The notes below the pieces were generated by a model, which was given only the letters and a program-made list of their open reading frames with translations, was not told the DNA's origin and ran no database searches. Shown in pieces: positions 4,871 through 28,245 of a DNA stretch of 64,000 bases. The stretch covers positions 56,706,785 through 56,770,784 of the forward strand of contig JASCQW010000098.1 in NCBI GenBank assembly GCA_030264375.1, in the 5' to 3' direction. The translations under genes and the position numbers were made by a program. The DNA comes from Carcharhinus longimanus. Lineage: Eukaryota. How positions within the stretch are numbered: position 1 is the first letter of the stretch; each line of letters starts with the position of its first letter.

Positions 4871-5208
4871 TAGGAGGTCTCTGAGGTGAAGCCTCCAGTT
4901 GCTTTGCAGACAGGGAAGCAAGGCCTGGAACATCAGAAGGACCGTCATTCTGAGGAGTTCTCAATAATAACAGCAAGAGGCATCAGAGCTCAACTTAGAA
5001 ATTAAGCGCTCTCATCTGTTTTTCTTTGTCACCAGCCCCATTACTACTTATCGCATGCCTTCAGATAAGTTCTAAATCCTTCAGCTCTGTACCCATCCGA
5101 CAACATCTCATCACATCAAACCTTTTGGAGTTATGTGTGAATGTGCAGGTCAAAATAATATAAACGAATAACTGAATGAAATTTACTCTTCTTGTTTATT
5201 AAGAAGAG

Positions 5209-5532
5209 ATGGTGATGTAGTAATCCAGAGGTTCAAGCTAATGCTTTGGGGATGTGAGTTCAAATCCCACCATGCTGGCGGGATTTAAAATCAATGAATT
5301 CATAAATTAGAAATTGGAAGCCATGAAACTACCATTTTTATTATAAAAGCACATCTGGTTCACTAATGTCCTCTTGGGAAGAAAATCTGCCGTCCTTACC
5401 TGTTCTGGCCTACATGTGATTCCAGATCCATAGCAGTGTGGTTGTCTCTTAATTGCTCTCTGAAATGGCAAGTCACTCAGTAGGATGAGCGTGAAAGCTG
5501 GTGTTGCCAGTCAGCCCACATCCCATGAAAAA
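5209..5532 (+). mobile_element. tRNA-headed SINE (family 2) with CR1-family-2 tail
   Basis: B-box GAGTTCAAATCCCACC; core CTGGTTCACTAATGTCC..GAAAATCTGCCGTCCTTACC; tail GCCCACATCCCATGAA; homologous to 38178-38520. Confidence 0.8.
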
Positions 5533-6454
5533 TATGTAAAACCACCCTGTTCTTTTCCCAGATTCTGCTTCCCCTGGGTGACATTGCATGCCTTTCTTTC
5601 TCACCAACAGGCAGAAATGCAGTTCTGATTCTGTTTCAGGGGAAACTTTACCACAAATAAAAATGGAATCCTTTTAAAATTTGTTCACAAGCACGCAATT
5701 CATTTACATGGCCTTCATCACTATACCACTCACATGTGATATGGACCTGACAAAAGTGACAGGTGGATCTTAAAGATTCCTCCTTCTGAGTACATTATAA
5801 AACACTGAAACATACCTAAAGATGGTATTATTTCAAGTGTCAGTTTGGAACTCATTTTTGCATTCTATTATACCATGTCTCCACTGATGTCTTTTCAGAG
5901 CCAAAAATCAGTGTTAATGGTTGCAACAGTTAAAAGACGTATATAGCAGATTTTACAGCAGGTTTACTAAGACCAGGATTTCTTGCTCCCATTCGGTATG
6001 GCGTGTTTGGCGATGGGAGTGGAAAATATAGGGAGAAGTGCAAAGTCATGTTTGATTTTCAGGTGCTCAAGACAGAAGAATGTGAATGTGTTTCAAAGCT
6101 GTGAACAGCATTCGAGAAACACTGTTTGTGCGAGTTGAGATAAAAATACATCCTCATGTGAAATGATGCAGGATTAGCAAACACCATCTGATCATATTCT
6201 GAGAAGTGATGACAGCTTAGATATGTGTTTTATTACACAGTCAGACTTCTGCTCGCTTTTAAATTGGCATTATCATATTCTCCCTCAGAAAAGTTGTTCA
6301 GTTAGCTATTTTCTTTCCATTTATAAATATGGGATAAAATTCATTGATATTAAGTACACCACCTTATCATTGAAAAAAACATAATTGCATTTTTAAGTAT
6401 GGTGCTATTGTGGCAAAGGCTTATAAACTCATCTGGAGTATTCCTTTTTTCAAT

Positions 6455-6732
6455 TTGAGTGTCACAAATAGGCTTACATTAACACTGCAATGAAGTTATT
6501 GTGAAAATCCCCTAGTTGCCACATTCCAGTGTCTGTTCGGGTACACTGAGGGAGAATCTAGCATGGCCAATGCACTTATCGGGCACATCTTTCAGACTGT
6601 GGGAGGAAACCGGAGCACCCAGAGGAAACCCATGCAGACATTGGGAGTCCGTGAAGACTCCGCACAGACAATGACTGAGACTGGAATTGAACCCAGGTCC
6701 CTGGCAATGCGAGGCAACTGTGTTAACCATGC
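6455..6732 (-). mobile_element. HE1/V-SINE, tail type II
   Basis: Reverse complement of the 52-350 family (TGTGGGAGGAAACCGGAGCACCC..GAATTGAACCCAGGTCCCTGG). Confidence 0.9.
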
Positions 6733-7052
6733 CTACAGTCAACATTGAAGGCATACAGAGCAGCAATTCATAGTTGAATGCATACCAAGTTCTAAAAGAG
6801 GCTCAAAACTGCCTCAAAACTAAGCCTTTAACTGTAAAGGTTTTGAACAGCTGTTTCAGGTAGTGTCCCTGAAGACCCTGGCACCCCGAATGTTACACAG
6901 ATCAGGTGCAGAACATTGCATCAGAGATGAATCCATTTTGTTCCAAAACCAGGTGCAGCAGGAACCATTGCCAACCCCTTTAAGCATGAATATGGAAGGA
7001 TTATTTAACAATGTGGGCAGCAGCTAAGCAACCTTAAAATCCATATCTATGG

Positions 7053-8016
7053 AACAAAAACGGAGAATGCTGGAAATGCCCAGCAGATGAGACAGCATGC
7101 AGAGAGAGAAATAGAGTTAATGGTCAGAATTATCCCATGATCCTGCTGATGGGTTCAATTGAGGGAGTGGGATGGTGGGCAGGGGGAAGTACTGAGGGCT
7201 GNNNNNNNNNNAATTTAGCATAAGCCAAAAATCAATTTCACGCCAACATGAATTTCCAGTGAGTTCTTTCACTGATGTCTACCATGACAACTGGGAAACC
7301 CACTGGAGGAGGCTGATGTAAAACTGATTTGAGTCCCACGGATAGGATGCAAATGAAGGCCCTATTCCTAATTCTCCACGGTGTCAGCAGGAAACACACC
7401 AGTGCAAAACGTATCTGCAACTACATGGCATGCAGAAGTTGGATTCAACTGAACAATAGCTGGGGCTACCAGTACGTGAAGGGAGCCACCAGCAACCTTG
7501 GGCCCTTGAACACCACAGCAGCAGCAGGCCGGGGGGGGGAGGCATTTATAGGTGGGTCTTCCAGCTTCAGTGTCATTGAGGTGGTCCATTTGCCAGCCTC
7601 AGACTATTCCTGGAGATCCCTCTTCTTTTTCAGGGGTCGATGTTTTTTCTTCATAGTGGGTCAGTAATATTGGGCACCTTTTCAATATGGCGCCTGCATT
7701 TGACAATGGGACTTCCATCGTCATTCCCAGGCCACTGCAAAATGTAGCACCAAACCTCTGGGTGCATAATTCATAAGGTCGGTATCAAAAGGCATGGTGT
7801 TGTTTCCTGCCATCCTCCGCAGTGAGAAATACCTCACGTTCCCACCCCCTCAGCAGGACTTAATCAGCAGGATGGAAGAATTCTGCCCAATGTTTCAGGT
7901 CAGTGACTTTCCATCAGAACTGTTTCTCTCTCCATGCATGTTCCCTGAATTCCAAATATTTCCAACATTCCCTGTTTTTATTTTAGATTTTCAGCATCTG
8001 CAGAACTCTGCTTTTG
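7053..8016. mobile_element. Penelope-like family A insertion split by a MITE
   Basis: AAAACGGAGAATGCTGGAAATG..AGAGTTAAT resumes at 7889 as AATGTTTCAGGTC..CATCAGAACTG..CAGCATCTGCAG; flanking ATCCATAT..TGGA at 7039 and 8017. Confidence 0.7.
7122..7888. mobile_element. Harbinger-type MITE
   Basis: TIRs GGTCAGAATTATCC / GGAAGAATTCTGCCC, TSD AAT on both sides; removing it restores the host element. Confidence 0.8.
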
Positions 8017-8781
8017 ATCCATATGCTTGGACAGGAGAGTAAGTAAGCCGTGAGATAGTGCTCAAGAACAGGAACAGTTGCTATCACTCCTCCATCTGAA
8101 ATCTAAGACCTCTAATCAGGTATCAAATTGATAGTTTTTGATCCATCTCTCTCAGTGCTACACAACAAGGTCTTTTTACATTAAGTGATTAGGGGAGCCC
8201 ACTAAAATTTCCATTTAAATCAATATTGTTGCAAAACATTTCACCAGTGCAATGTTAAACCTTTAAAATGTGTGAAATCTAGAGCAGCATATTCTAAACT
8301 AGAATTACAAAGCATGATTTGATTTTTTGACTGTAGATTTTGACTGATTTTTTTTTTAACTGTAGAATAAACTTTCCCAGAAAAAAAAGGTTAACTTTCT
8401 GCAATGTTTACAGAGAGTATTCAAGGATGTATAAACTTTTTAGTACATTGATAAGTCCCATTTTGATTTGGGTTGAATTTTACTAGTGGAATTTTAGCCA
8501 TGGTCAACTGCATTCAAAGGTCGTGGCTGCCAAGGAATTCATTGCTGCCAAATGTGCTTGTTTCCATACTTTAAAGATTTCTGTTTATTCAGTGCAATTA
8601 AACTGATGCCCTCAAAAGCAAAATGATTTCCTTTTTTGTGTAAAAAGCTTTTCATGAATTTATTGTTTTCCTCACTGACAAAATGCATTTATTCTCTACC
8701 TGCAGTTCCATGGGTTCATCCTGAAAATAAGAGCTAAGTAGTAGCTCTTTGTTTAAATTGGGCTGAAGAAATTAGTTACAA

Positions 8782-8928
8782 TTTTTTTTCCAAAAATATA
8801 CTTTATTCATAAAAATCTCAAGTAATCTATTGCAAATGTACAGGGCTTTGCTAGCAAACAATGTGGAATCAAAACATTTTTACAGGTCTGTCCAAATTAC
8901 AGTGACTACATTTCAATACTTAAAAACT
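8782..8928 (-). mobile_element. Probable L1/Tx1-type LINE 3' end
   Basis: Minus strand ends ATGAATAAAGTATATTTTTGGAAAAAAAA (polyA signal plus A tail); the rest is lost in a gap. Confidence 0.45.
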
Positions 8929-9560
8929 NNNNNNNNNNNNNNNNNNNNNNNNNNNNNNNNNNNNNNNNNNNNNNNNNNNNNNNNNNNNNNNNNNNNNNNN
9001 NNNNNNNNNNNNNNNNNNNNNNNNNNNNNNNNNNNNNNNNNNNNNNNNNNNNNNNNNNNNNNNNNNNNNNNNNNNNNNNNNNNNNNNNNNNNNNNNNNNN
9101 NNNNNNNNNNNNNNNNNNNNNNNNNNNNNNNNNNNNNNNNNNNNNNNNNNNNNNNNNNNNNNNNNNNNNNNNNNNNNNNNNNNNNCTCTAGGAAAACCCG
9201 CAACGTGAAAGACAATTCTTGATTTAAACATTTCTAGGTGGGAAAGGAAAAGATTGGAAGGATATCCTCGGGAGCTGTGAATTATTTTAGACTCGCTCCA
9301 GGAGAACTGAATGTTCACTTAAAGGACAGTGTAACATTCACCTGATAGTGGGGTTTTTCAGTTGTGCTGAAATTTATTTTCCATAGCTTAAAGTACAAGT
9401 TGCCTAAAAAATATTGTTTAGTAAATAGGGCTTTTACTCTGGTTTTGGCAAATGTCTTAAAATGTGAAATCTTGTTGTGTTCTCCACTGCTTGATTTATC
9501 GAACTATGGTATTTGTGAATGTTATCATCTCTTCCTGTGAAGTATTTTATCCAAGCTAAT

Positions 9561-10528
9561 GGGCCCTATTTTAACATTTTGATTTTAAGCGCTAGGCAGA
9601 CTTGAAACTGGGAGTGTTTCAGATTCGACTTTTAGAGGCACCCCCATACACACTCTGCCTGCAAAAGTATCAGTCAGTCCGAATCACAAACCTGTGGGCA
9701 GGGCTAAATGCATCCAAAACCATGCAGCTTTGACCGGCTTCCAACTGTGCATGAGCAGATAAAAAAATGATAGAATTCTGCTCCCCTGCCACCCCCCTCC
9801 CGGACCCCCATTGACATTGTCCCATCCCCCCCAACATTACTCACCCCCTTATCCCCCACACCCCTGCCACCCAGACTGATCATGGGCCCCTCCCTCCTGC
9901 TGATCTCGGGCAGAGTGACAGTGGACCCCCCTTCACCCCTGCTGATCTCAGGCAGAGTGCCCCACCCTCTCCCTTCCCTCCCCACTGATCACAGGTAGAG
10001 TGGCAGTGGACCCCCTTTAACCTCCACTGATATCAGAGAGCGTGGCAGCAGACTCACTTACCACCCCATCAATCGTAAGCAGAGTGGCAGTGGACCCCCT
10101 TTCACTGCCACTCATCATAGACAGTGTGGCAGCAGATCCCCCCTTTCCCCCATTGATCTCAAGCAGAGTGGCAGTGGATCCACCTTCTCCCCACCCGTTC
10201 CCCCACCGATCTCAAGCAGAGAGCCATCAGAAGCTAGGCACCTACCTTCACACTAACCCTCACTGATGGGGCACCTGAGTCAGATGTATATGNNNNNNNN
10301 NNNNNNNNNNNNNNNNNNNNNNNNNNNNNNNNNNNNNNNNNNNNNNNNNNNNNNNNNNNNNNNNNNNNNNNNNNNNNNNNNNNATCAGTAAAGTTGGGCG
10401 TACAGCCCATTAAGTCAATTTAAATGCCGGTGCGGAGGCGGGCCTGGATCGTGCTACTTACTTCATGGACGACTTTACCAAGTTTTCACGCCCAAAAACA
10501 GGTGCAGTGCGATGGTAAAATCAGGCCC
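9561..10528. mobile_element. Harbinger-type non-autonomous element
   Basis: TIRs GGGCCCTATTTTAACAT / ATGGTAAAATCAGGCCC, TSD AAT; both termini homologous to 34072-35105. Confidence 0.85.
9870..10225 (+). repeat. GC-skewed minisatellite (~43-46 bp unit) inside the MITE
   Basis: About 8 degenerate repeats of CTGATCTCAGGCAGAGTGGCAGTGGACCCCCC-(pyrimidine tract). Confidence 0.85.
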
Positions 10529-12041
10529 AATGTGTCCATGTGGTATTTTTCAAGCTGAGCCAGGTATTTCTTTTTATCTGGCCCCTTTTTATCTGCTCAT
10601 CTTTTGCATATGATGGGGTATTGTTGTGTTGCCAGATTTGAACAGAAACCCTGAACATTAATCTCACTCAAAATTATGGTAGCGATATTCTTGCCATACA
10701 TGCCTGGCACTGAACGCGTTAGAGCAGTGCAGGGACAGAGAATCGCAGGTGAGTGTTTCAGCACATTCTGCACCAGCACAAAACTTTGTCAGTATCTTCC
10801 AACCCTACACTTCAAGATGTAATCCGCTTCCCACCCAGTAAGTTCATGGCTGGATTTTCCCTGCTCCTGGGATATTTTGACCTTTGGTCACAACTGGAAT
10901 CCTGTGTGAATCACTAGTGGTCTCTGCAAGTGGAGACCAGGTGTGATGGCCACAGCGGGTTGGCTTGGAGGCCATTCAGTTCCTTGGTGTTTGGGGACAT
11001 GACTGGGCATTGCCCATTTGGCAGTGCCAAGGAGGCTGGGGCATGAGGGGAGTGGAGCCTGAGGGGGCTGTGATATCAGGGTGCTGGGGCATGAGGGAGT
11101 TTCAAAGGTGGGGCATGAAGTGGGAGGGGTTTATGAGGGGGGCATGAAGTGNNNNNNNNNNNNNNNNNNNNNNNNNNNNNNNNNNNNNNNNNNNNNNNNN
11201 NNNNNNNNNNNNNNNNNNNNNNNNNNNNNNNNNNNNNNNNNNNNNNNNNNNNNNNNNNNNNNNNNNNNNNNNNNNNNNNNNNNNNNNNNNNNNNNNNNNN
11301 NNNNNNNNNNNNNNNNNNNNNNNNNNNNNNNNNNNNNNNNNNNNNNNNNNNNNNNNNNNNNNNNNNNNNNNNNNNNNNNNNNNNNNNNNNNNNNNNNNNN
11401 NNNNNNNNNNNNNNNNNNNNNNNNNNNNNNNNNNNNNNNNNNNNNNNNNNNNNNNNNNNNNNNNNNNNNNNNNNNNNNNNNNNNNNNNNNNNNNNNNNNN
11501 NNNNNNNNNNNNNNNNNNNNNNNNNNNNNNNNNNNNNNNNNNNNNNNNNNNNNNNNNNNNNNNNNNNNNNNNNNNNNNNNNNNNNNNNNNNNNNNNNNNN
11601 NNNNNNNNNNNNNNNNNNNNNNNNNNNNNNNNNNNNNNNNNNNNNNNNNNNNNNNNNNNNNNNNNNNNNNNNNNNNNNNNNNNNNNNNNNNNNNNNNNNN
11701 NNNNNNNNNNNNNNNNNNNNNNNNNNNNNNNNNNNNNNNNNNNNNNNNNNNNNNNNNNNNNNNNNNNNNNNNNNNNNNNNNNNNNNNNNNNNNNNNNNNN
11801 NNNNNNNNNNNNNNNNNNNNNNNNNNNNNNNNNNNNNNNNNNNNNNNNNNNNNNNNNNNNNNNNNNNNNNNNNNNNNNNNNNNNNNNNNNNNNNNNNNNN
11901 NNNNNNNNNNNNNNNNNNNNNNNNNNNNNNNNNNNNNNNNNNNNNNNNNNNNNNNNNNNNNNNNNNNNNNNNNNNNNNNNNNNNNNNNNNNNNNNNNNNN
12001 NNNNNNNNNNNNNNNNNNNNNNNNNNNNNNNNNNNNNNNNN

Positions 12042-12110
12042 TTGGACTTTAAGCTGGTGTTGTGGGATTTCTTTCTGTTTTACCCCAGTCTAATGCCAGC
12101 ATCTACACAT
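12042..12110 (+). mobile_element. Penelope-like family B 3' terminus
   Basis: TTGGACTTTAAGCTGGTGTTGTGGGATTTC..ACCCCAGTCTAATGCCAGCATCTACACATG matches the copies at 23522, 43254 and 59105. Confidence 0.7.
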
Positions 12111-12205
12111 GCCTCTTTGCCATCCAGATTACTTTAAGGAGCTGATTACAGCACCATATTTCAAATAATTTGATGTTTTATTTATTGCTAATACTCAATG
12201 TACAG

Positions 12206-12657
12206 CAATGCTTCCCAACCTTATGTATGTCATGGCACACTCTATACTGTAAAAAGAAATTGAGGCATAGGTTCTATTTTCTCTGTCTCCTTTCCTAACT
12301 GGGAGCTTGTTTTAACCTCTCCCTGTCTCTCTTGCTTTTTTCAGGGTTTTTGCACCCTTTATGAATTTGCGCTTTTTGTGGGTGCGCATGGGACTTTTTG
12401 TCTTCAGCTCAAAGTCCCATTGGTACATGGGCCCAACCAACATAAAAATCTAAACCATGCTGTTTCCCATTTACTGCGTGCACGGGAGGCCCAAGATTTT
12501 TCAGGTCTTGGAGGTGCCAACCTTAGAGGTGGAGATGAAGATTAGTGTTAGTTTAATTACATGAATTTTGAATCATGTTGAATCTTTTTTTCGCCACACA
12601 CTTGGGGGTGCTTCACAGCACATCTGTGTGCCACGGCACATTGGTTGGGAATTACTG
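12206..12657. mobile_element. hAT (Charlie-type) MITE
   Basis: TIRs CAATGCTTCCCAACC / GGTTGGGAATTACTG; subterminal GGCACAC motifs; degenerate 8-bp flanks ATGTACAG / CTCTACAC resemble the NTCTAGAN target. Confidence 0.65.
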
Positions 12658-13750
12658 CTCTACACCATGCAGGAGGGTAACCTTTATTAACAATTATTAT
12701 TAAAAATGCTTTACTTCATGTTTACTTCTGTCCATCCTGATGGCATTTAAATTTGTGGAAGCTTATTTTTATTATCCCAGTGGATTTTCAGTGGTCCAAA
12801 GCTCGCAACAAAATTAAACATTTTTCATTTTGTCAAAATGCTCTGTAATTTGTCACCATTGTGCACTTGCATAACTTACGTGTTCTCAATTGGCTCCCAA
12901 TTCTCCCACATTCTGTCTGACAGTAGTTTCTGCTTTATTATTGCCAATGAAATGTTCATCAATGGCTTGCTGTAGATTATTGACTTGTCTTCCTGCAAAG
13001 CTGGTTCAATTGAAGTTCATCTGTATCAATATCACATTGTGTGTCCCTGTTTGCCTATTAAAAGGATTATCCGAGCAGTAGGAGGATTCTGTCCTGAGCG
13101 GGAAAACAAAAATGAAAGGAACAGTTTTACTCTGCAAAAGCCTTCTTCTGGATATGAATCGCTGCCAATCAGAGCAAAGTTAGCAAGAGTCATTGTGAAT
13201 GTGTAGTCCACACCATCCCGGCTCTCAGAGACTGGATCATGTCATGAGGATTAAAATATTCAAAACTGAGGACAGAGGGGAATTCAGTTTTGAATCTCTG
13301 CTCTTCTGCAGCTTTACTGCACAACTTTAGCAGAGGACATCTCTCTCTTGTGCTAAATTGATCACCAACCATAACAGAGAATTTTATGACTAAGAGTTGA
13401 TTGTCGGCTGAATAGCTGTTGTTCCCTAAAAAAACAGTTAGTGATCTTGATAAACTCAAAGTCTGGTAGGAAGAGAGAGCTCCATAATACACTCGGGTGC
13501 AACCAGCACAGTAACGGTGACAAATTGCATCATATTTGGTTCATTGATTTTTTTTAAGTCTGACACAGCAATACTGAGATAGAATAGAGTCAGTAAAAGA
13601 CCAGAAATAATTTACCATCAAAAGAAGCTGTTGCTTTCACTCAAATTAAATCCAACAGGATGAAAAAATGGCTTTCTGCTGAGATTCGTTATTATCTATT
13701 CAGGTGCGGTTGAGATAGTAACTTCAACAGAGACAAAACAGCGTTTTATA

Positions 13751-14792
13751 AATAAAAACAGAAAATGCTGGATTAACACAACCGGTCTGGTAGTATCTGT
13801 GGAGAGAGAAACAGAATTAAGGTTTTGAGTCCACTGACCCTTCTACAGAACTGAAAAGAGATAGAAATTATATACTGGATGAAGTGGATAGAGTAGAATG
13901 GTACGTCAGTGATGAATTGGAGGTAAAGAGAGATTGACAAAGTCATCATGGAACATGCGACAGAGGGACTGCTAATGGTGCCATTACAGACTGAAGAATG
14001 TTAATAGTGGTAAAGGTAGGCTAGCAGAAAGTGCTAATAGGAAATAGGAGTCAGTGGAAGCAAAACCGAACAACAAGGGACAGTGACCGCATGGGGGAGG
14101 AGGGGGAGCGTGCTTGTGTTGGGACAGCCAGGGGAACCAAAAACAGAAAGCAAAAGGAGGCAATCAACAAGGATCAGAAAGTTTGCAACCTAAAATTGTT
14201 GAACTCAATATTGAGACCAAAAAGCTATAATGTGACGAGTCAGGAGGAGGCATAGTTCTTCCAGTTTATGTTCACTGGAGCATTACAACAGGCCAAGGAC
14301 AGACATGTAGGCATGAGAGTAATTTGAAAAGTCAAGTGGCCGGAAGGTTGGAATTATGCTTGCAGATGGAGCTTCCAATTTCCTCCCCTCTCCTGTCAGT
14401 TTCCCAGGCTTGTCCCAACACGATCTACCCCTCCCCGTTGTGAGCACTTGTTGTTCAGTTTTGCTCCCACTGAGCACTGCCTTTATTCCTATTAACAAAT
14501 TCTGCTATCCTACCTTCGCCAATATTAACATTCTTCAGCCTCTACCATTATTACAGTCCCTTTGTCTCATGTCAGTGACATCTTTGTCAATCTTGCCTTA
14601 GCTCCCACTTATCACTGACTTTCCATTCTGCCCACCCTCCTTTTCAAGTATATCACCTTTCAATCCCTTTTCAATTCTGTAGAAGGGCCAATTAACTCAT
14701 AATGCTAACTGTGTTTTTCTCCACAGGTGCTGCCAGACCTGTTGAGTATTTCCAGCACTTTTTGTTTTTATTTCAGATTTCCAGTATCTGCT
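13751..14792. mobile_element. Penelope-like element, family A: truncated, inverted copy with GIY-YIG endonuclease C-terminus
   Basis: Minus strand 14370-14190 gives SICKHNSNLPAT*LF / SHAYMSVLGLL*CSSEHKLEE / GLNIEFNNF; both ends are inverted family A termini. Confidence 0.8.
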
Positions 14793-15309
14793 TTCATTAA
14801 ATGCATCTATTTATATTATGTCTCTGCTTCTTGTATTGCAATTTAGTAGCTTAGATCTCTATGACCGAAATATAGCACATTGCTGCATTCCAAATTCATG
14901 ATTGTTTTCAAATATTGATTTTGGGCAGTCTGCAATATTGATCTGAAAAAAACCATTATTATCTGACGTGCAAGTAACTGACAAAATTATTTCTCAAGAA
15001 AAGAAAGTCAACTTTGCCATAACAGATTTTTGGTTGTGAGACCAAGTGTCAGACATCATATTCCTGGAGTACGGCAGTAATTGCATTTCTCAAGTACTGA
15101 ATTGGTTGTAAATCACTTTGGAACATTCTGGAAAACATTATATAATGCAAATTCATCCATCCTTTGAAGTGTATGAGTGTCGATAACTGGTAAAGGATCA
15201 TTTGGAATTTTGTTACTGTTCCATTTTCAATATCTGTTCATTTGTGAAGGGTCACATTCAACCATTAATATTGCTTATTTAAGTAACAGGTGGATTCTGT
15301 CATTATTAT

Positions 15310-15510
15310 ATACTGACATCTGGAACGCACTGCCCAGGAAGGTGATGGAAAGATGCAATAGCAAATTTCAAAAGGGAATTGGATTCAGACTTGAAAGGGA
15401 GAATTTTTTTTTCACGGGACGGAGAAAGGAAATGGCAGTAAAGGAGAATGGGACCAATTGGACATTGATGGGCTGAATGGCCTCCTTGTATTTTATATGA
15501 TTCTATACCA
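15310..15510 (+). mobile_element. CR1 3' end fragment
   Basis: TGGAACGCACTGCC..GATGGGCTGAATGGCCTCCTT..TATGATTCTAT. Confidence 0.7.
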
Positions 15511-15959
15511 CTTCCTCAGCTCTTTTTGAAACCAAGAGATTGAAAGGTGGTGTTCCCTGAAGGATGTGTACAGCTGCACTCTCACATAGGTTTTCTTTCT
15601 TTTAAATGGGACTTTTCAATCCTATAGACATTACTGCTAAGTCAATTTGAATGAAATTGCCGCACCATGAAAGCTAATAGTGAACATATCTCCATAATGC
15701 TGCCTTTAGGACCTATACAAATAAAAAAAACTACCATTTTATCAGAAGGATGCAATTTGTTTCTCTTTGAGTAGAAACCATAAATGAATTGTAAATCAGA
15801 GCTGGTGGATTATTGAATGTGCTGGCTTGAGGAGTGGCTTTTTGTTGTAGAATATACACAAATCCACAGCAGGCAGGTTTCCAGAAATGCAGATTTCTTT
15901 CAACCAGTTCTTCCATTTGTAGCACTCTGGATGCTTATGCTACCCTTGAGAACGTAGCT

Positions 15960-16256
15960 CCACAGTCGCACAGTGGCTAGCACTGCTGCCTCACAACACC
16001 AGAATCTAGGTTCAGATCCAGCTCGGGTGACTGTCTGTGTGGAGTTTGTACATTGTCTGCGTGGATTTTTCCGGGTGCTCCAGTTTCCTCCCACAGTTCA
16101 AAGGTGTGCAGGTTAGTGGCCAAGGTAAATTTTCCCTTAGGACTAGCAGGGTAAATATGTGGGGTTATGAGAATAGGGCCTGCCTGGAATTGTGGTCGGT
16201 GCAGACTTGATGGGCCAAATGGCCTCCTTCTTCACTGTAGGAATTCTGTGATTCTA
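15960..16256 (+). mobile_element. HE1/V-SINE, CR1-type tail (type I)
   Basis: tRNA head, V-domain, tail GATGGGCCAAATGGCCTCCTTC..CTGTAGGAATTCTGTGATTCTA. Confidence 0.9.
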
Positions 16257-16599
16257 CAAACTACTCAGGTAACAATTTTCATATGATGCAATGGTACAAC
16301 AGGATAAGGCAGGCATCCTTTTTCTATTATTAGTAGAAATATTGCAAAAGCCATATGGATCATGGAATTTCCCAAATCTTCTATTGTGACTTATCTCCTG
16401 TCACACCTCCACTCATTAGAAGCTCTTGTTACTATCAACATCATATGCCCGCAGAAAAAAGGGCAAGCACACACTCACAGCCAAAATCAACACTGGAGTA
16501 AACGTGACTGTACTACCAGCCAAGAATCCTGAAGGATATGTATCTGGATCATTGGCAGTCAATGACAGAATCTATGACAGATAAATTGGTACAATGGGT

Positions 16600-17212
16600 C
16601 ACTCATTGATTGCATAGGTATAATGGTATTGAAATGCTGCCATGGTAAGTCCGTGCACATGGAAACCACAAGTATTCAACTTGATGGACTCAAGTGGATC
16701 AGCAGTAGCAACATTACCCACATGTCTGGAACTCAGCATTGTGACCATATACAAGATCACCAAGTTCCCAATTGCAGCTGAAAAGACGAAGAATAAGCAC
16801 AATGAATAATTAGACCATAGTTGATAATAGATGTAGCCAGACAGATTCAATGCCATAGGGAGCTTCAGGGATGATGTAGTATTACACCTCAGAGATTATG
16901 CAATGTGGTTGATCAACCCTCCGAAAAAGTGCAGTGTCCATGTACAGGAGAAGCAACTGAGTGAATTGGATGACGTGGAGTAGTTCCATCATATGCACTA
17001 AAAAACAATGGTACCATTCGGGAATGTCTGAACTCAAAATGCCTAAATCTCACTCTGAAGAAGGACACACTTAAGATTTCAACATCAGAGGAATTACATC
17101 CCAAATTCATTGAAGCAAGGTTTTTCTCCCACATGGATGCCAAACAAGGATATTGATGATTTCACTTGGCAAATGGATCTGAAAAAATCATTACTTTCAG
17201 GATGTCATTCAT
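16600..17212 (+). pseudogene. Ty3/Gypsy pol relic (protease end to RT start)
   Basis: PDRFNAIGSFRDDVVLHLRD..INPPKKCSVHVQEK; SSIIYALKNNGTIRECLNSKCLNLTLK..EELHPKFIEARFFSHMDAKQGY**FHLA..ITFRMSF, matching Gypsy RT motifs IR.CLD.K.LN and FS.LDAK.GYW. Confidence 0.85.
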
Positions 17213-17449
17213 ACAACACACAACATACTCTTTATGAGGATATTGTAAGCTGAGGTGGAGTCACCTGACACACTGGTCAGAATCTTCTAGGTCCCATGGA
17301 CGCAGGGCTGAGCAGGAGCAAACTTAGAGCTTAGGGCATTCAGTAGATAGGGTAATGCTTTTCTGTATTCGTGACTTATCCAGAGTCACTGATCAGTGGT
17401 AGCGACTCCTCTCCAGGCAACGATAGGTAGTCAATAATGAGCAATTAAG

Positions 17450-18200
17450 ATCCAAATGAAGTGAACAGATTGCTGAGCCCAACAGTTCTATGGAGGGAAT
17501 CTCCCAGTAGCAGGCCAAAGGCTGTAATCTCCAATAATAGAACTGCAGATTATAAAACTGTACAAATAATTCCCCTGGAGAGGTTTCACCTCTGCTAATG
17601 TGGGCTTCATCTCTCTTCATTTTGTCAATTGTATGCATGATTCATAGGGTGCCTCCATTCTGAGGTGCCTTCATGCTTTCTTTGCTGCCTTAACAGTGCC
17701 CACCTTCTCTGATGAGGTGATGGCCTTCCTGTAACTGGATCTGCAGCTTTAGAATGACAGATGTGCCCAACTCCTGAAAATAAACAGAATATTTCACATA
17801 AGGTTCTCTGTTGAGGTTCAGGTGGAGCATTACTCCCTGAAAACCGTGGCAAATATGGCCTCCTATTGAGAAATCATCCCACTCTTCCATCAGCTTGTCC
17901 TGCTCTGTGTTACCTCTACTCACTCTCCCTGTCAAGCAGCAATTCAAGAGAGATGCAAACTATCGCAGCCATACCCGGCAACATGTGATTTGTACAGAAT
18001 CCTTGGAATCAGAACAAAGTCCGATAGCATGAGTCTTATCTTACTGTTGCTGAATTCATATTCAGCAGTACAAGTTTCAGAGAGGGTGGAAGATGAAGTA
18101 TTCAGCTGCAGTGCTGGCATCACTGACGTCACAATCCGTCCACCTCAGCACACTTAGGGCGGAAACACCTTGCGCACGTGCCAGCACCCTCAGTGAAATG
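17450..18200 (-). pseudogene. Probable Harbinger transposase relic, heavily decayed
   Basis: Scattered motifs in the expected order: RCFRPK..RQ*C, FQG, GFQGV, EAHIS; many frameshifts. Confidence 0.45.
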
Positions 18201-26264: not shown

Positions 26265-26617
26265 GCAGCACAGTGGCACAGTGGTTAGCACTGCTGCCTC
26301 ACAGTGCCAGCGACCTGGGTTCGATTCCCAACTTGGGTCACTGTGTGGAGTTTTGCACATTCGCCCTGTGTCTGCGTGGGTTTCTTCCGGGTGCTCTGGT
26401 TTTTTTTGCCACAGTCCTAAAGATGTGTTGGTTGGGTGCATTGGCCATGCTAAGTTGATGCTTAGTGTGCCAAGTTATGTTGGTTAGGGGGCATTAGGGG
26501 TTATGGAGATTGGGCGGGCAGGTTGGTCTGTGTGTAGGCCTGGGTAAGGCGCTGAGTTGGTGCAGGCTTGAGGGGCTGAATAGCCTCCTTATGTACTGTA
26601 GGGATTCTATGATTCTA
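26265..26617 (+). mobile_element. HE1/V-SINE, tail type I
   Basis: Full head, V-domain, CTGTAGGGATTCTATGATTCTA end. Confidence 0.9.
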
Positions 26618-27095
26618 GCTGCATGCATATTATGTGCTAACCCTAGCAATATCTGATCAGGTCATTGTTGGAAGTTCCCTGATGACTCAAGCCCAGTGCT
26701 GAACGCCAGGATATCAATCCAAGGAATTCCCCAGTTCAGGGAAAGGTTGCCCATGTTTCATAGTAACTATATTGACAATGGATAGTGAGTCAATTTTCGA
26801 AAGTGCTTATGAACAAAACACTTACTGTGGAAACCTAGCAGCACAGAGGCACCCAAATATATCTCAGACCACAAGAGTTTGCACATTGAAAGGTGATACT
26901 TTACATTTTTTGGGCTGAAACCTCAAGAAAGTTCACCACATCATCTCAGCAATGACTCACAAACAACAAAACTCACAGGAAAGCTGTGTCTCACATGTGT
27001 AACACATTTGCTGCACTCATTGAACCACAAAATTAAAATTAGATTCCAACAAGTCAGTTTCATCAAAGCAATTGAAACAGCTTGATTTTAAAAAG

Positions 27096-27313
27096 TTTTT
27101 ACTCCATTCTTAAAGTTACAAAGCCAAAGTGCAGAGCGGACCAGGCAAGACTTCAATCCAAGTCCTTGTTTGCTCCAAAAATCAACTCAAATTCGACCCA
27201 ATTCATGGTGCCCACATGAGACACAACAAGATCTGAGCTGACAAGATAAGGCATTGCACGCGATCTTGGTCTTAATCTGATGCTTGATCTTAGTCAAAAG
27301 GCTGACAAGCGAT
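27096..27313 (-). mobile_element. Short retroposon with U2 snRNA-derived 5' end
   Basis: Minus strand starts ATCGCTTGTCAGCCTTTTGACTAAGATCAAG (28/31 identical to U2 nt 1-31), then ~185 nt non-U2 body ending GGAGTAAAAA. Confidence 0.75.
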
Positions 27314-27384: not shown

Positions 27385-28245
27385 ATAGTTAAGAAAGCCC
27401 ACCAACACCTCTACTTTCTCAGAAGGCGAAAGAAATTTGGCATGCACCACAGTGGTTAGCACTGCTGCTTCACAGCGCCAGAGCCCTAGTTTCGATTCCT
27501 GGCTTGGGTCACTGACTGTGTGGAGTTGCATGTTCTCCCTGCGTCTGCATGGGTTTCCTCTGGGTGCTCTGGTTTCCTCCCACAGGTTGATTGGCATGCT
27601 AAAATTGCCCCTTAGTGTCCTGAGATGTGTAGATTAGACAGATTAGCGGGTGTGTAAGGGTAAGGGGTAGGGCGTGGATGGGATTGTGATTGGTGCAGAC
27701 TTGATGGGCCAGATGGCCTCTTTCCGCACTGTAGGGTTTCTATGTCCGCTACAACTCTCATCAACTTTTACAGATGCACCCACAGAAGGCATTCTTTCTG
27801 GCTGTATCACAAGTTGGTATGGCTCCTGCTCTGCCCAAGACTGCAAGGAACCACAAAGGGTTGTGAATGTAGCCCAGTCCATCGGTCAAACCAGCCTCCC
27901 ATCCATTAACTCTGTCAACATTTCCCACTGCCTTGGAAAAACAGTCAGCATAATTAAGAATATTCTCTCTTCCACCTTCTTCCTTCAGGAAAAAGATACA
28001 AAAGTCTGAGATCACGTGCCAACCGACTCAAGAATGGTTTCTTCCCTGCTGCCCTCAGACTTTTGAATGGACTTACTTTGCATTAAGCTGATCTTTCTCT
28101 ACACCCTAGCTATGACTGTAACACTACATTCCACACTCTCTTGTTTCCTTCTCTATGAACGATATGTTTTGTCTGTATAGCGTGCAAGAAACAATATTTT
28201 TTACTGTATATTAGTATATGTGACAATAATAAATCAAATCAAAAA
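27385..28245 (+). mobile_element. Rex1/Babar LINE 3' part, interrupted by a SINE
   Basis: IVKKAHQHLYFLRR.KKFGM | SATTLINFYRC..EGILSGCITSWYGSCSAQDCKEPQRVV; ends GTGACAATAATAAATCAAATC. Confidence 0.85.
27446..27744 (+). mobile_element. HE1/V-SINE, tail type I, nested in Rex1
   Basis: CAGTGGTTAGCACTGCTGC..CTGTAGGGTTTCTATG; interrupts the FGM|S codons. Confidence 0.9.

Follow-up and report, generated by a model that had tools for sequence, protein, structure and literature searches.

The minus strand of the window (the whole 64-kb stretch of shark DNA analyzed here) carries at positions 27086..27313 a full-length copy of a short retroposon derived from U2 small nuclear RNA, with 87% identity to the consensus of its family, designated family A. 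It represents an old member of a dispersed, U2-derived SINE family, and we consider it likely that members of this family were moved by a LINE of the Keno/Tx1 type and were transcribed from source copies under an outside promoter, probably that of a U2 gene.

Results

Anatomy of the window copy

Family A elements are ~215 bp in length and consist of U2 nt 1–31, a 15-nt insert, a diverged copy of U2 from nt 23 to ~160, and a tail of ~30 nt; alignment to U2 also shows the sequence around the Sm site to be slightly expanded in two places. The initial annotation had placed the minus-strand start of the element at U2 nt 1, and this position is indeed 27313. The head (27283..27313) corresponds to U2 nt 1–31 (stem-loop I) and matches the best U2 gene of this genome (L031) at 28 of 31 positions, with the family consensus matching at 30 of 31. 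The second copy of the AGATCAAG motif that had been noted after the head is also present; it lies in the 15-nt insert (27268..27282), which forms the 5' arm of a new outer stem. This stem is part of a 49-nt hairpin (27230..27278) that is common to a sister family, with its inner stem being homologous to U2 nt 23–47 and its outer stem being made of former stem IIa sequence. The site of the U2 branch-point recognition motif was located by alignment at 27252..27257, where GTAGTA has changed to GCAATG.

Further along the minus strand, a homologue of U2 stem IIb was located at 27209..27223 by alignment and pairing count, a retained Sm site–like motif at 27175..27182 with the Rfam U2 model and alignment, and a homologue of U2 stem-loop III at 27133..27165 with the Rfam U2 model, alignment, and pairing. 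The place of U2 stem-loop IV is taken by the tail (27086..27114), which ends in A5-T5-A4 and for which a LINE-like end was the best match, a resemblance that is suggestive. The A-rich end described earlier (A5-C-T5-A4) was found to extend to ~27086, 10 nt beyond the end then proposed, and the rest of U2 is absent as had been claimed, with no intact U2 nt 39–191 downstream of the element. Two copies of another SINE-like repeat, which we take to be of the tRNA type, lie close to the element (26270–26610 and 27450–27760). No host gene was recognized in the 64-kb window from open reading frames of at least 110 amino acids.

U2 origin of the body

The element had been described as a U2 head joined to a LINE-derived tail unit, with a body of ~170 nt of non-U2 sequence. 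The U2 head stands, whereas the body proved to be diverged U2 sequence according to the Rfam model, a shuffle test, and a consensus alignment, and only the last ~30 nt are LINE-like. The Rfam U2 model spanned model positions 1–192 on the window copy with a score of 25 bits (E = 0.063; gathering score, 46), and a better-preserved copy, L002, scored 41.4 bits (E = 2e-5). Alignment of the window body (element nt 47–218) with U2 nt 32–191 gave a score of 53, compared with a mean of 19.5 and a maximum of 37 for 1000 shuffles; the substretch 56–110 by itself scored 26 against a shuffle maximum of 29 and is not clearly above shuffles. The family A consensus was identical to U2 nt 23–160 at 96 of 154 positions (62%, E = 8e-10). 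The body of family A is thus derived from U2, not from a LINE.

Features of a functional U2 gene that are missing from family A include the branch-point motif, stems IIa and IV, and the upstream promoter. A functional U2 snRNA gene was ruled out for the locus, given that the branch-point motif is lost, stem IIa is broken, stem IV is replaced, and the score is 25 rather than 46 bits.

Dispersal and age of family A

Searches of the shark's own genome yielded 3,227 and 5,080 first-look candidates, with 40 being scored in each search. A 19-mer from the tail had 656 exact genome matches (reversed control, 0), and all 30 sampled loci were family A members, some of them truncated or interrupted; 5'-truncated copies occur among these tail-selected loci. 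In 30 aligned copies, both ends were common and the flanks were unrelated. Division of the 656 matches by the survival of a 19-mer at 84–90% identity gives a rough copy number of ~5,000–18,000, with capture-recapture overlaps of 0/30 and 0/9 yielding no point estimate. The copies were 84.8–94.5% identical to the family A consensus, and the closest match to the most consensus-like copy was 91%; given that no copy is more similar than this, family A is old. It contains subfamilies with diagnostic changes and indels, one of which is nearer to U2 at the branch-point region and stem III.

Target-site duplication (TSD) scores of at least 11 were obtained for 10 of 93 copies, compared with 0.5% of shuffled flank pairings, and scores of at least 9 for 21 of 93, compared with 7.2% of shuffled pairings. 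The other 83 copies were without a strong TSD, among them the window copy, in which no TSD was recognizable (best score, 7). Most of the 93 copies end in an A-rich stretch, which frequently takes the form A5-T5-A5 instead of a pure poly-A tail. The initial annotation had proposed that many dispersed copies with the same U2 junction and TSDs would support a SINE; the junction was consistent and TSDs were above control, and the existence of this dispersed family therefore refutes a one-off template-switch chimera. A single repeat as target was considered and rejected, with 19 of 186 flanks matching another copy's flank and these matches being spread over several repeats.

Contigs of three organisms match the element (970, 1,429, and 1,877 contigs). 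For one of the organisms, contigs were identical to the window flank; for the other two, contigs starting in the diverged 3' flank overlap the element by 30 and 25 letters, just under the 31-letter threshold of the comparison, which suggests that the insertion is shared among these organisms.

A younger sister family

A 19-mer from the head had 1,769 exact genome matches (control, 0). The first 30 loci comprised nine copies of family A, 20 of a sister family (family B), and one unclear case, with none being U2, so that searches for U2 in such genomes mostly find these elements. Family B (L140, L154, L167–L196; about two thirds of exact head matches) is ~300 nt in length, with 3,456 candidates and 94.7% identity to consensus in the best 30 matches. 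Its members consist of a U2 1–39 head, a spacer that is predicted to fold back on this head, a decayed second head, two family A hairpins, and an A tail, and they show 76–78% identity to family A over both units. Family B is younger than family A (about 95% versus about 87% identity to consensus), and L139 and L153 look intermediate between the two. A U4 piece (5' stem-loop) in a family B–type spacer (L153:1445–1477) was considered but not established, with an E value of 0.85 and no match in a second scan.

RNA folding and loss of the branch-point motif

Pairing in U2 stems I, IIb, and III was retained at 76–91% across 40 family A copies, compared with 16–73% for slid controls, whereas stem IIa is disrupted and other sequence occupies the place of stem IV. 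In the outer stem of the new hairpin, the duplicated motif pairs with sequence that once belonged to stem IIa. The hairpin comprises 18 pairs, with 88% of cells paired in 41 distinct units of families A and B; the alignment was made from 43 of 47 units, those excluded being an insertion-bearing unit, a deletion-bearing unit, and a pair belonging to a second element in L171. Hairpin cells changed on both sides numbered 57, compared with 15.5 after shuffling (0 of 500 shuffles as high), and seven pairs carried two-sided changes, compared with 5.3 (53 of 500 shuffles), these counts being inflated by relatedness in that a few lineage-level changes are each counted many times.

The U2 segment to which the inner stem corresponds (nt 23–47) is that of the branchpoint-interacting stem-loop. 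The excerpted description of this stem-loop in U2 places its first pair at G25 and portrays it as weak and mutually exclusive with an extended stem I (PMC13019295). The hairpin of families A and B may have been selected to render the RNA inert in splicing.

The U2 nt-39 site and a candidate LINE partner

Keno and Utopia insert immediately before U2 nt 39, according to the excerpted source (PMC4640811). In the shark genome, U2 nt 39 onward is preceded by noncanonical letters at eight loci: a family B tail is found at two, a LINE-like end at three (in one case with a short spacer), and another A-tailed element at one (L162, around 1500), and the remaining two resemble plain U2 pseudogenes. At L164 and L165 (around 1500), the family B tail is followed without a gap by U2 from nt 39, with the U2 part being 3'-truncated and lacking an upstream U2 promoter. 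Family A was not found at this site, with one pattern match not being a member and none of 93 flanks showing the arrangement. Three family A copies (L027, L237, and L238) are preceded by newly added U2 5' pieces that terminate around nt 43–47.

The LINE-like end, which is present at the nt-39 site in L159, L163, and L166 as well as at other loci (L207–L236), had 342 exact genome matches, most of them dispersed. None of 30 sampled matches was followed by U2 nt 39 onward, and target choice of the LINE is therefore loose; one of the 30 lay inside a family B copy (L224) and one after a U2 5' piece. Such dispersal fits with that of the SINE copies. Upstream of one LINE-like end is a fragment with reverse-transcriptase motifs that we take to be of the Tx1/L1 type. 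The insertion site, together with the motifs in this one fragment, suggests that the candidate LINE belongs to Tx1/Keno. The connection with Keno and Utopia that was initially proposed thus gains support from family B at nt 39 and the likeness of the tail, but not from the head, which ends at nt 31 rather than at nt 38/39.

Origin of the tail

The terminal 32 nt of family A matched the LINE end at 25 positions without gaps, a value reached by none of 2000 shuffles. This match is AT-rich; without the poly-A stretch, it dropped to 16 of 22 positions, a value reached by 5.5% of shuffles, and the likeness is therefore suggestive only. The tail scored 39.5 against the LINE end, compared with 20 and 11 for U2-derived candidates, the LINE end being a better match than either the U2 3' flank or stem IV. 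Votes for individual copies (n = 93) went to the LINE in 58, the U2 3' flank in 30, and stem IV in five, with two of the four tail candidates being LINE ends. The motif GAATAAA was present in 23 of 30 family B copies and a longer LINE motif in two of 30. On the basis of such sequence resemblance, derivation of the family A tail from a LINE-like 3' end is suggestive. A LINE with the whole family A tail motif was sought and rejected, with none of 30 tail-selected loci continuing into a LINE.

Three young U2 copies (L046–L048) have the same GTAACTT junction, produced in them by a deletion that extends into the U2 3' flank, and the tail may therefore be derived from a U2 locus. They are found on small contigs with common flanks, skip stem IV, and are 92–95% like U2. 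As ancestors of family A they were rejected, given that only two loci carry the exact pattern (control, one) and that they are too close to U2.

Promoter and U2 loci

The initial annotation had proposed a search for master copies with upstream PSE/DSE promoter elements; among 58 copies with an intact 5' end, none carries U2 promoter sequence upstream, and the matches that one upstream probe gave lie in a repeat, away from the promoter match. No promoter-linked source locus was found in this genome, whose U2 arrays appear to be collapsed into small contigs, making this a weak test. We infer that source copies used a U2 promoter because the start is fixed at nt 1, a near-perfect head is combined with a body at 62% identity to U2, and family B occurs at the U2 site. 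Stem I and the Sm site of family A both contain T-runs. Among contigs of one presumed RNA run, 22 match the element, and 94% run on into unlike sequence, a result that speaks neither for nor against expression.

The promoter of L031 has one other promoter-proximal remnant (L206:1500–1900), in which the first U2 letters are followed by unrelated sequence; the latter resembles an antisense processed pseudogene. The genome contains at least four divergent types of full-length U2 gene (L031, L032, L033, and L034; 80–89% identity to L031). L032 and L034 have in common an upstream block, which presumably resembles U5, and L034 is a tandem unit of ~1 kb. Dispersed U2 retrocopies that extend beyond the mature end by at least ~35 nt of 3' flank were also observed (L036–L039, L041–L044, and L049); they all stop at the same point and lack poly-A, apparent TSDs accompany several of them, and they appear to be retroposed U2 precursors.

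Discussion

The preferred reading, an old SINE copy derived from U2 and moved by a Keno/Tx1-type LINE, would operate as follows. Source RNAs that keep stem I, stem IIb, the Sm site, and stem III would gain snRNA-like stability, and the locked hairpin would leave them inert in splicing. A Keno/Tx1-type LINE would recognize the tail and reverse-transcribe the element in trans, and occasional landing in U2 or template switching to U2 would provide a new head together with the promoter that the element lacks.

Movement of a U2-derived element by a poly-A–recognizing L1-type or other LINE, with a tail obtained from stem IV or the 3' flank of a U2 locus, is a serious but unlikely alternative. It is favored by the GTAACTT junction common to the deleted U2 copies, by the absence of family A from the Keno site (one pattern match and 93 flanks checked), and by the dispersal of canonical U2 read-through retrocopies in the genome. 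The tail nevertheless scores highest against the LINE end, family B occupies the Keno site, and the deleted copies, with 92–95% likeness to U2, are too young to have given rise to a body with 62% likeness.

An origin of the copies as processed pseudogenes from a variant U2-like snRNA gene, once or still functional, with its own promoter and a cellular role, seems improbable. In its favor, the Sm site and stems I, IIb, and III persist although divergence from U2 has reached 38%, the hairpin covaries, and the genome has both variant U2 genes and U2 retrocopies. However, the branch-point motif and stem IV are gone, exact head matches belong mostly to families A and B, with none of the 30 sampled being U2, and none of the 58 intact copies checked was a near-consensus, promoter-linked one. 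Furthermore, the existence of several subfamilies with diagnostic indels and of a derived, dimer-like sister family points to successive source elements. A U2 head fused to a Keno- or Utopia-derived body (a nonautonomous Keno), or a one-off chimera, is very hard to credit: near-perfect U2 identity does end abruptly at nt 31, and the last ~30 nt are LINE-like, but the body is homologous to U2 nt 23–160, the junction is common to many copies, and 30 of 30 tail-selected loci failed to run into a LINE. Family A lacks the LINE-end body of nonautonomous Keno or Utopia elements and was not found before U2 nt 39, where these insert.

Returning to movement by Keno/Tx1, we raise, tentatively and with more doubt than conviction, the wider possibility that an independent and long-lasting radiation of U2-derived SINEs that parasitize Keno arose in cartilaginous fishes. 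Such elements would have a Keno-like tail, insert at nt 39 in U2 genes and thereby acquire the snRNA promoter and a new U2 head, retain the Sm-snRNP scaffold, and fix the branchpoint-interacting stem-loop in a stable hairpin that prevents the RNA from poisoning splicing. If true, this would name the promoter and the LINE partner that are still open for crocodilian SINEU. Two families of different age, intermediates, a candidate LINE, and nt-39 joins render the ideas of a borrowed U2 promoter and a Tx1 partner testable.

In the literature searched, SINEU is the only described class of snRNA-headed SINE and is reported from crocodilians alone; the excerpted defining paper records none outside this group and no LINE with the SINEU-1 tail, and treats SINEU transcription as an open question (Kojima 2015, PMC4494074). 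No snRNA-derived SINE from cartilaginous fishes was found in that literature, with Repbase, Dfam, and most subscription journals being outside its scope. The word "snRNA" is absent from the text of a paper on chondrichthyan SINEs (PMC5499810), and the excerpted text of another mentions SINEU only as a 2015 proposal (PMC5786205).

Family A resembles U2 processed pseudogenes in consisting of dispersed U2-derived copies with TSDs, which also exist in this genome. Such pseudogenes are 81–95% like U2 and lack private features, however, whereas family A copies share the duplication, hairpin, indels, and tail. Similarity to Keno and Utopia LINEs, as far as their excerpted description extends, lies in the use by family B and the LINE-like end of the site before U2 nt 39; unlike these LINEs, family A has no protein coding, has a U2 body, and was not found at this site. 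As in SINEU-1 and SINEU-2, U2 (or U1) 5' pieces have been added recurrently together with partial duplication, both in family B and in L027, L237, and L238, whose 5' pieces resemble the SINEU-2 5' extensions in the excerpted account. In contrast to these elements, family A showed no component derived from U1, and SINEU-1 has a non-snRNA 3' half.

The crocodilian element SINEU-3, as described in the same excerpts, is ~169 bp with an internal U2 deletion of ~50 bp and has about 1,600 copies, 90% of which reside in a single Mariner target, Mariner-N4_AMi (PMC4494074). Set beside this description, family A is similar in its short U2 5' piece (31 bp, compared with 32 bp in SINEU-3), internal U2 segment, non-U2 3' end of 30–40 nt, A tail, and old age; SINEU-3 has no internal promoter, and a Tx1-type mobilizer has been proposed for it. 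Family A differs in having an internal duplication rather than the ~50-bp deletion, a length of ~215 bp, a strongly diverged body, a new hairpin, a higher copy number, and no dominant target or preference for Mariner-N4_AMi (19 of 186 flanks matching another copy's flank). It shows the features of the SINEU class, namely an snRNA head, a short (<500 bp) noncoding multicopy unit, an A tail, and TSDs with 5' truncation. The initial label of "SINEU-like or Keno/Utopia-derived" is therefore retained in its first part and abandoned for the body, which is U2. The families may already be catalogued, and family A is best read as a SINEU-like element with a layout similar to that of SINEU-3 but distinct from SINEU-3 proper.
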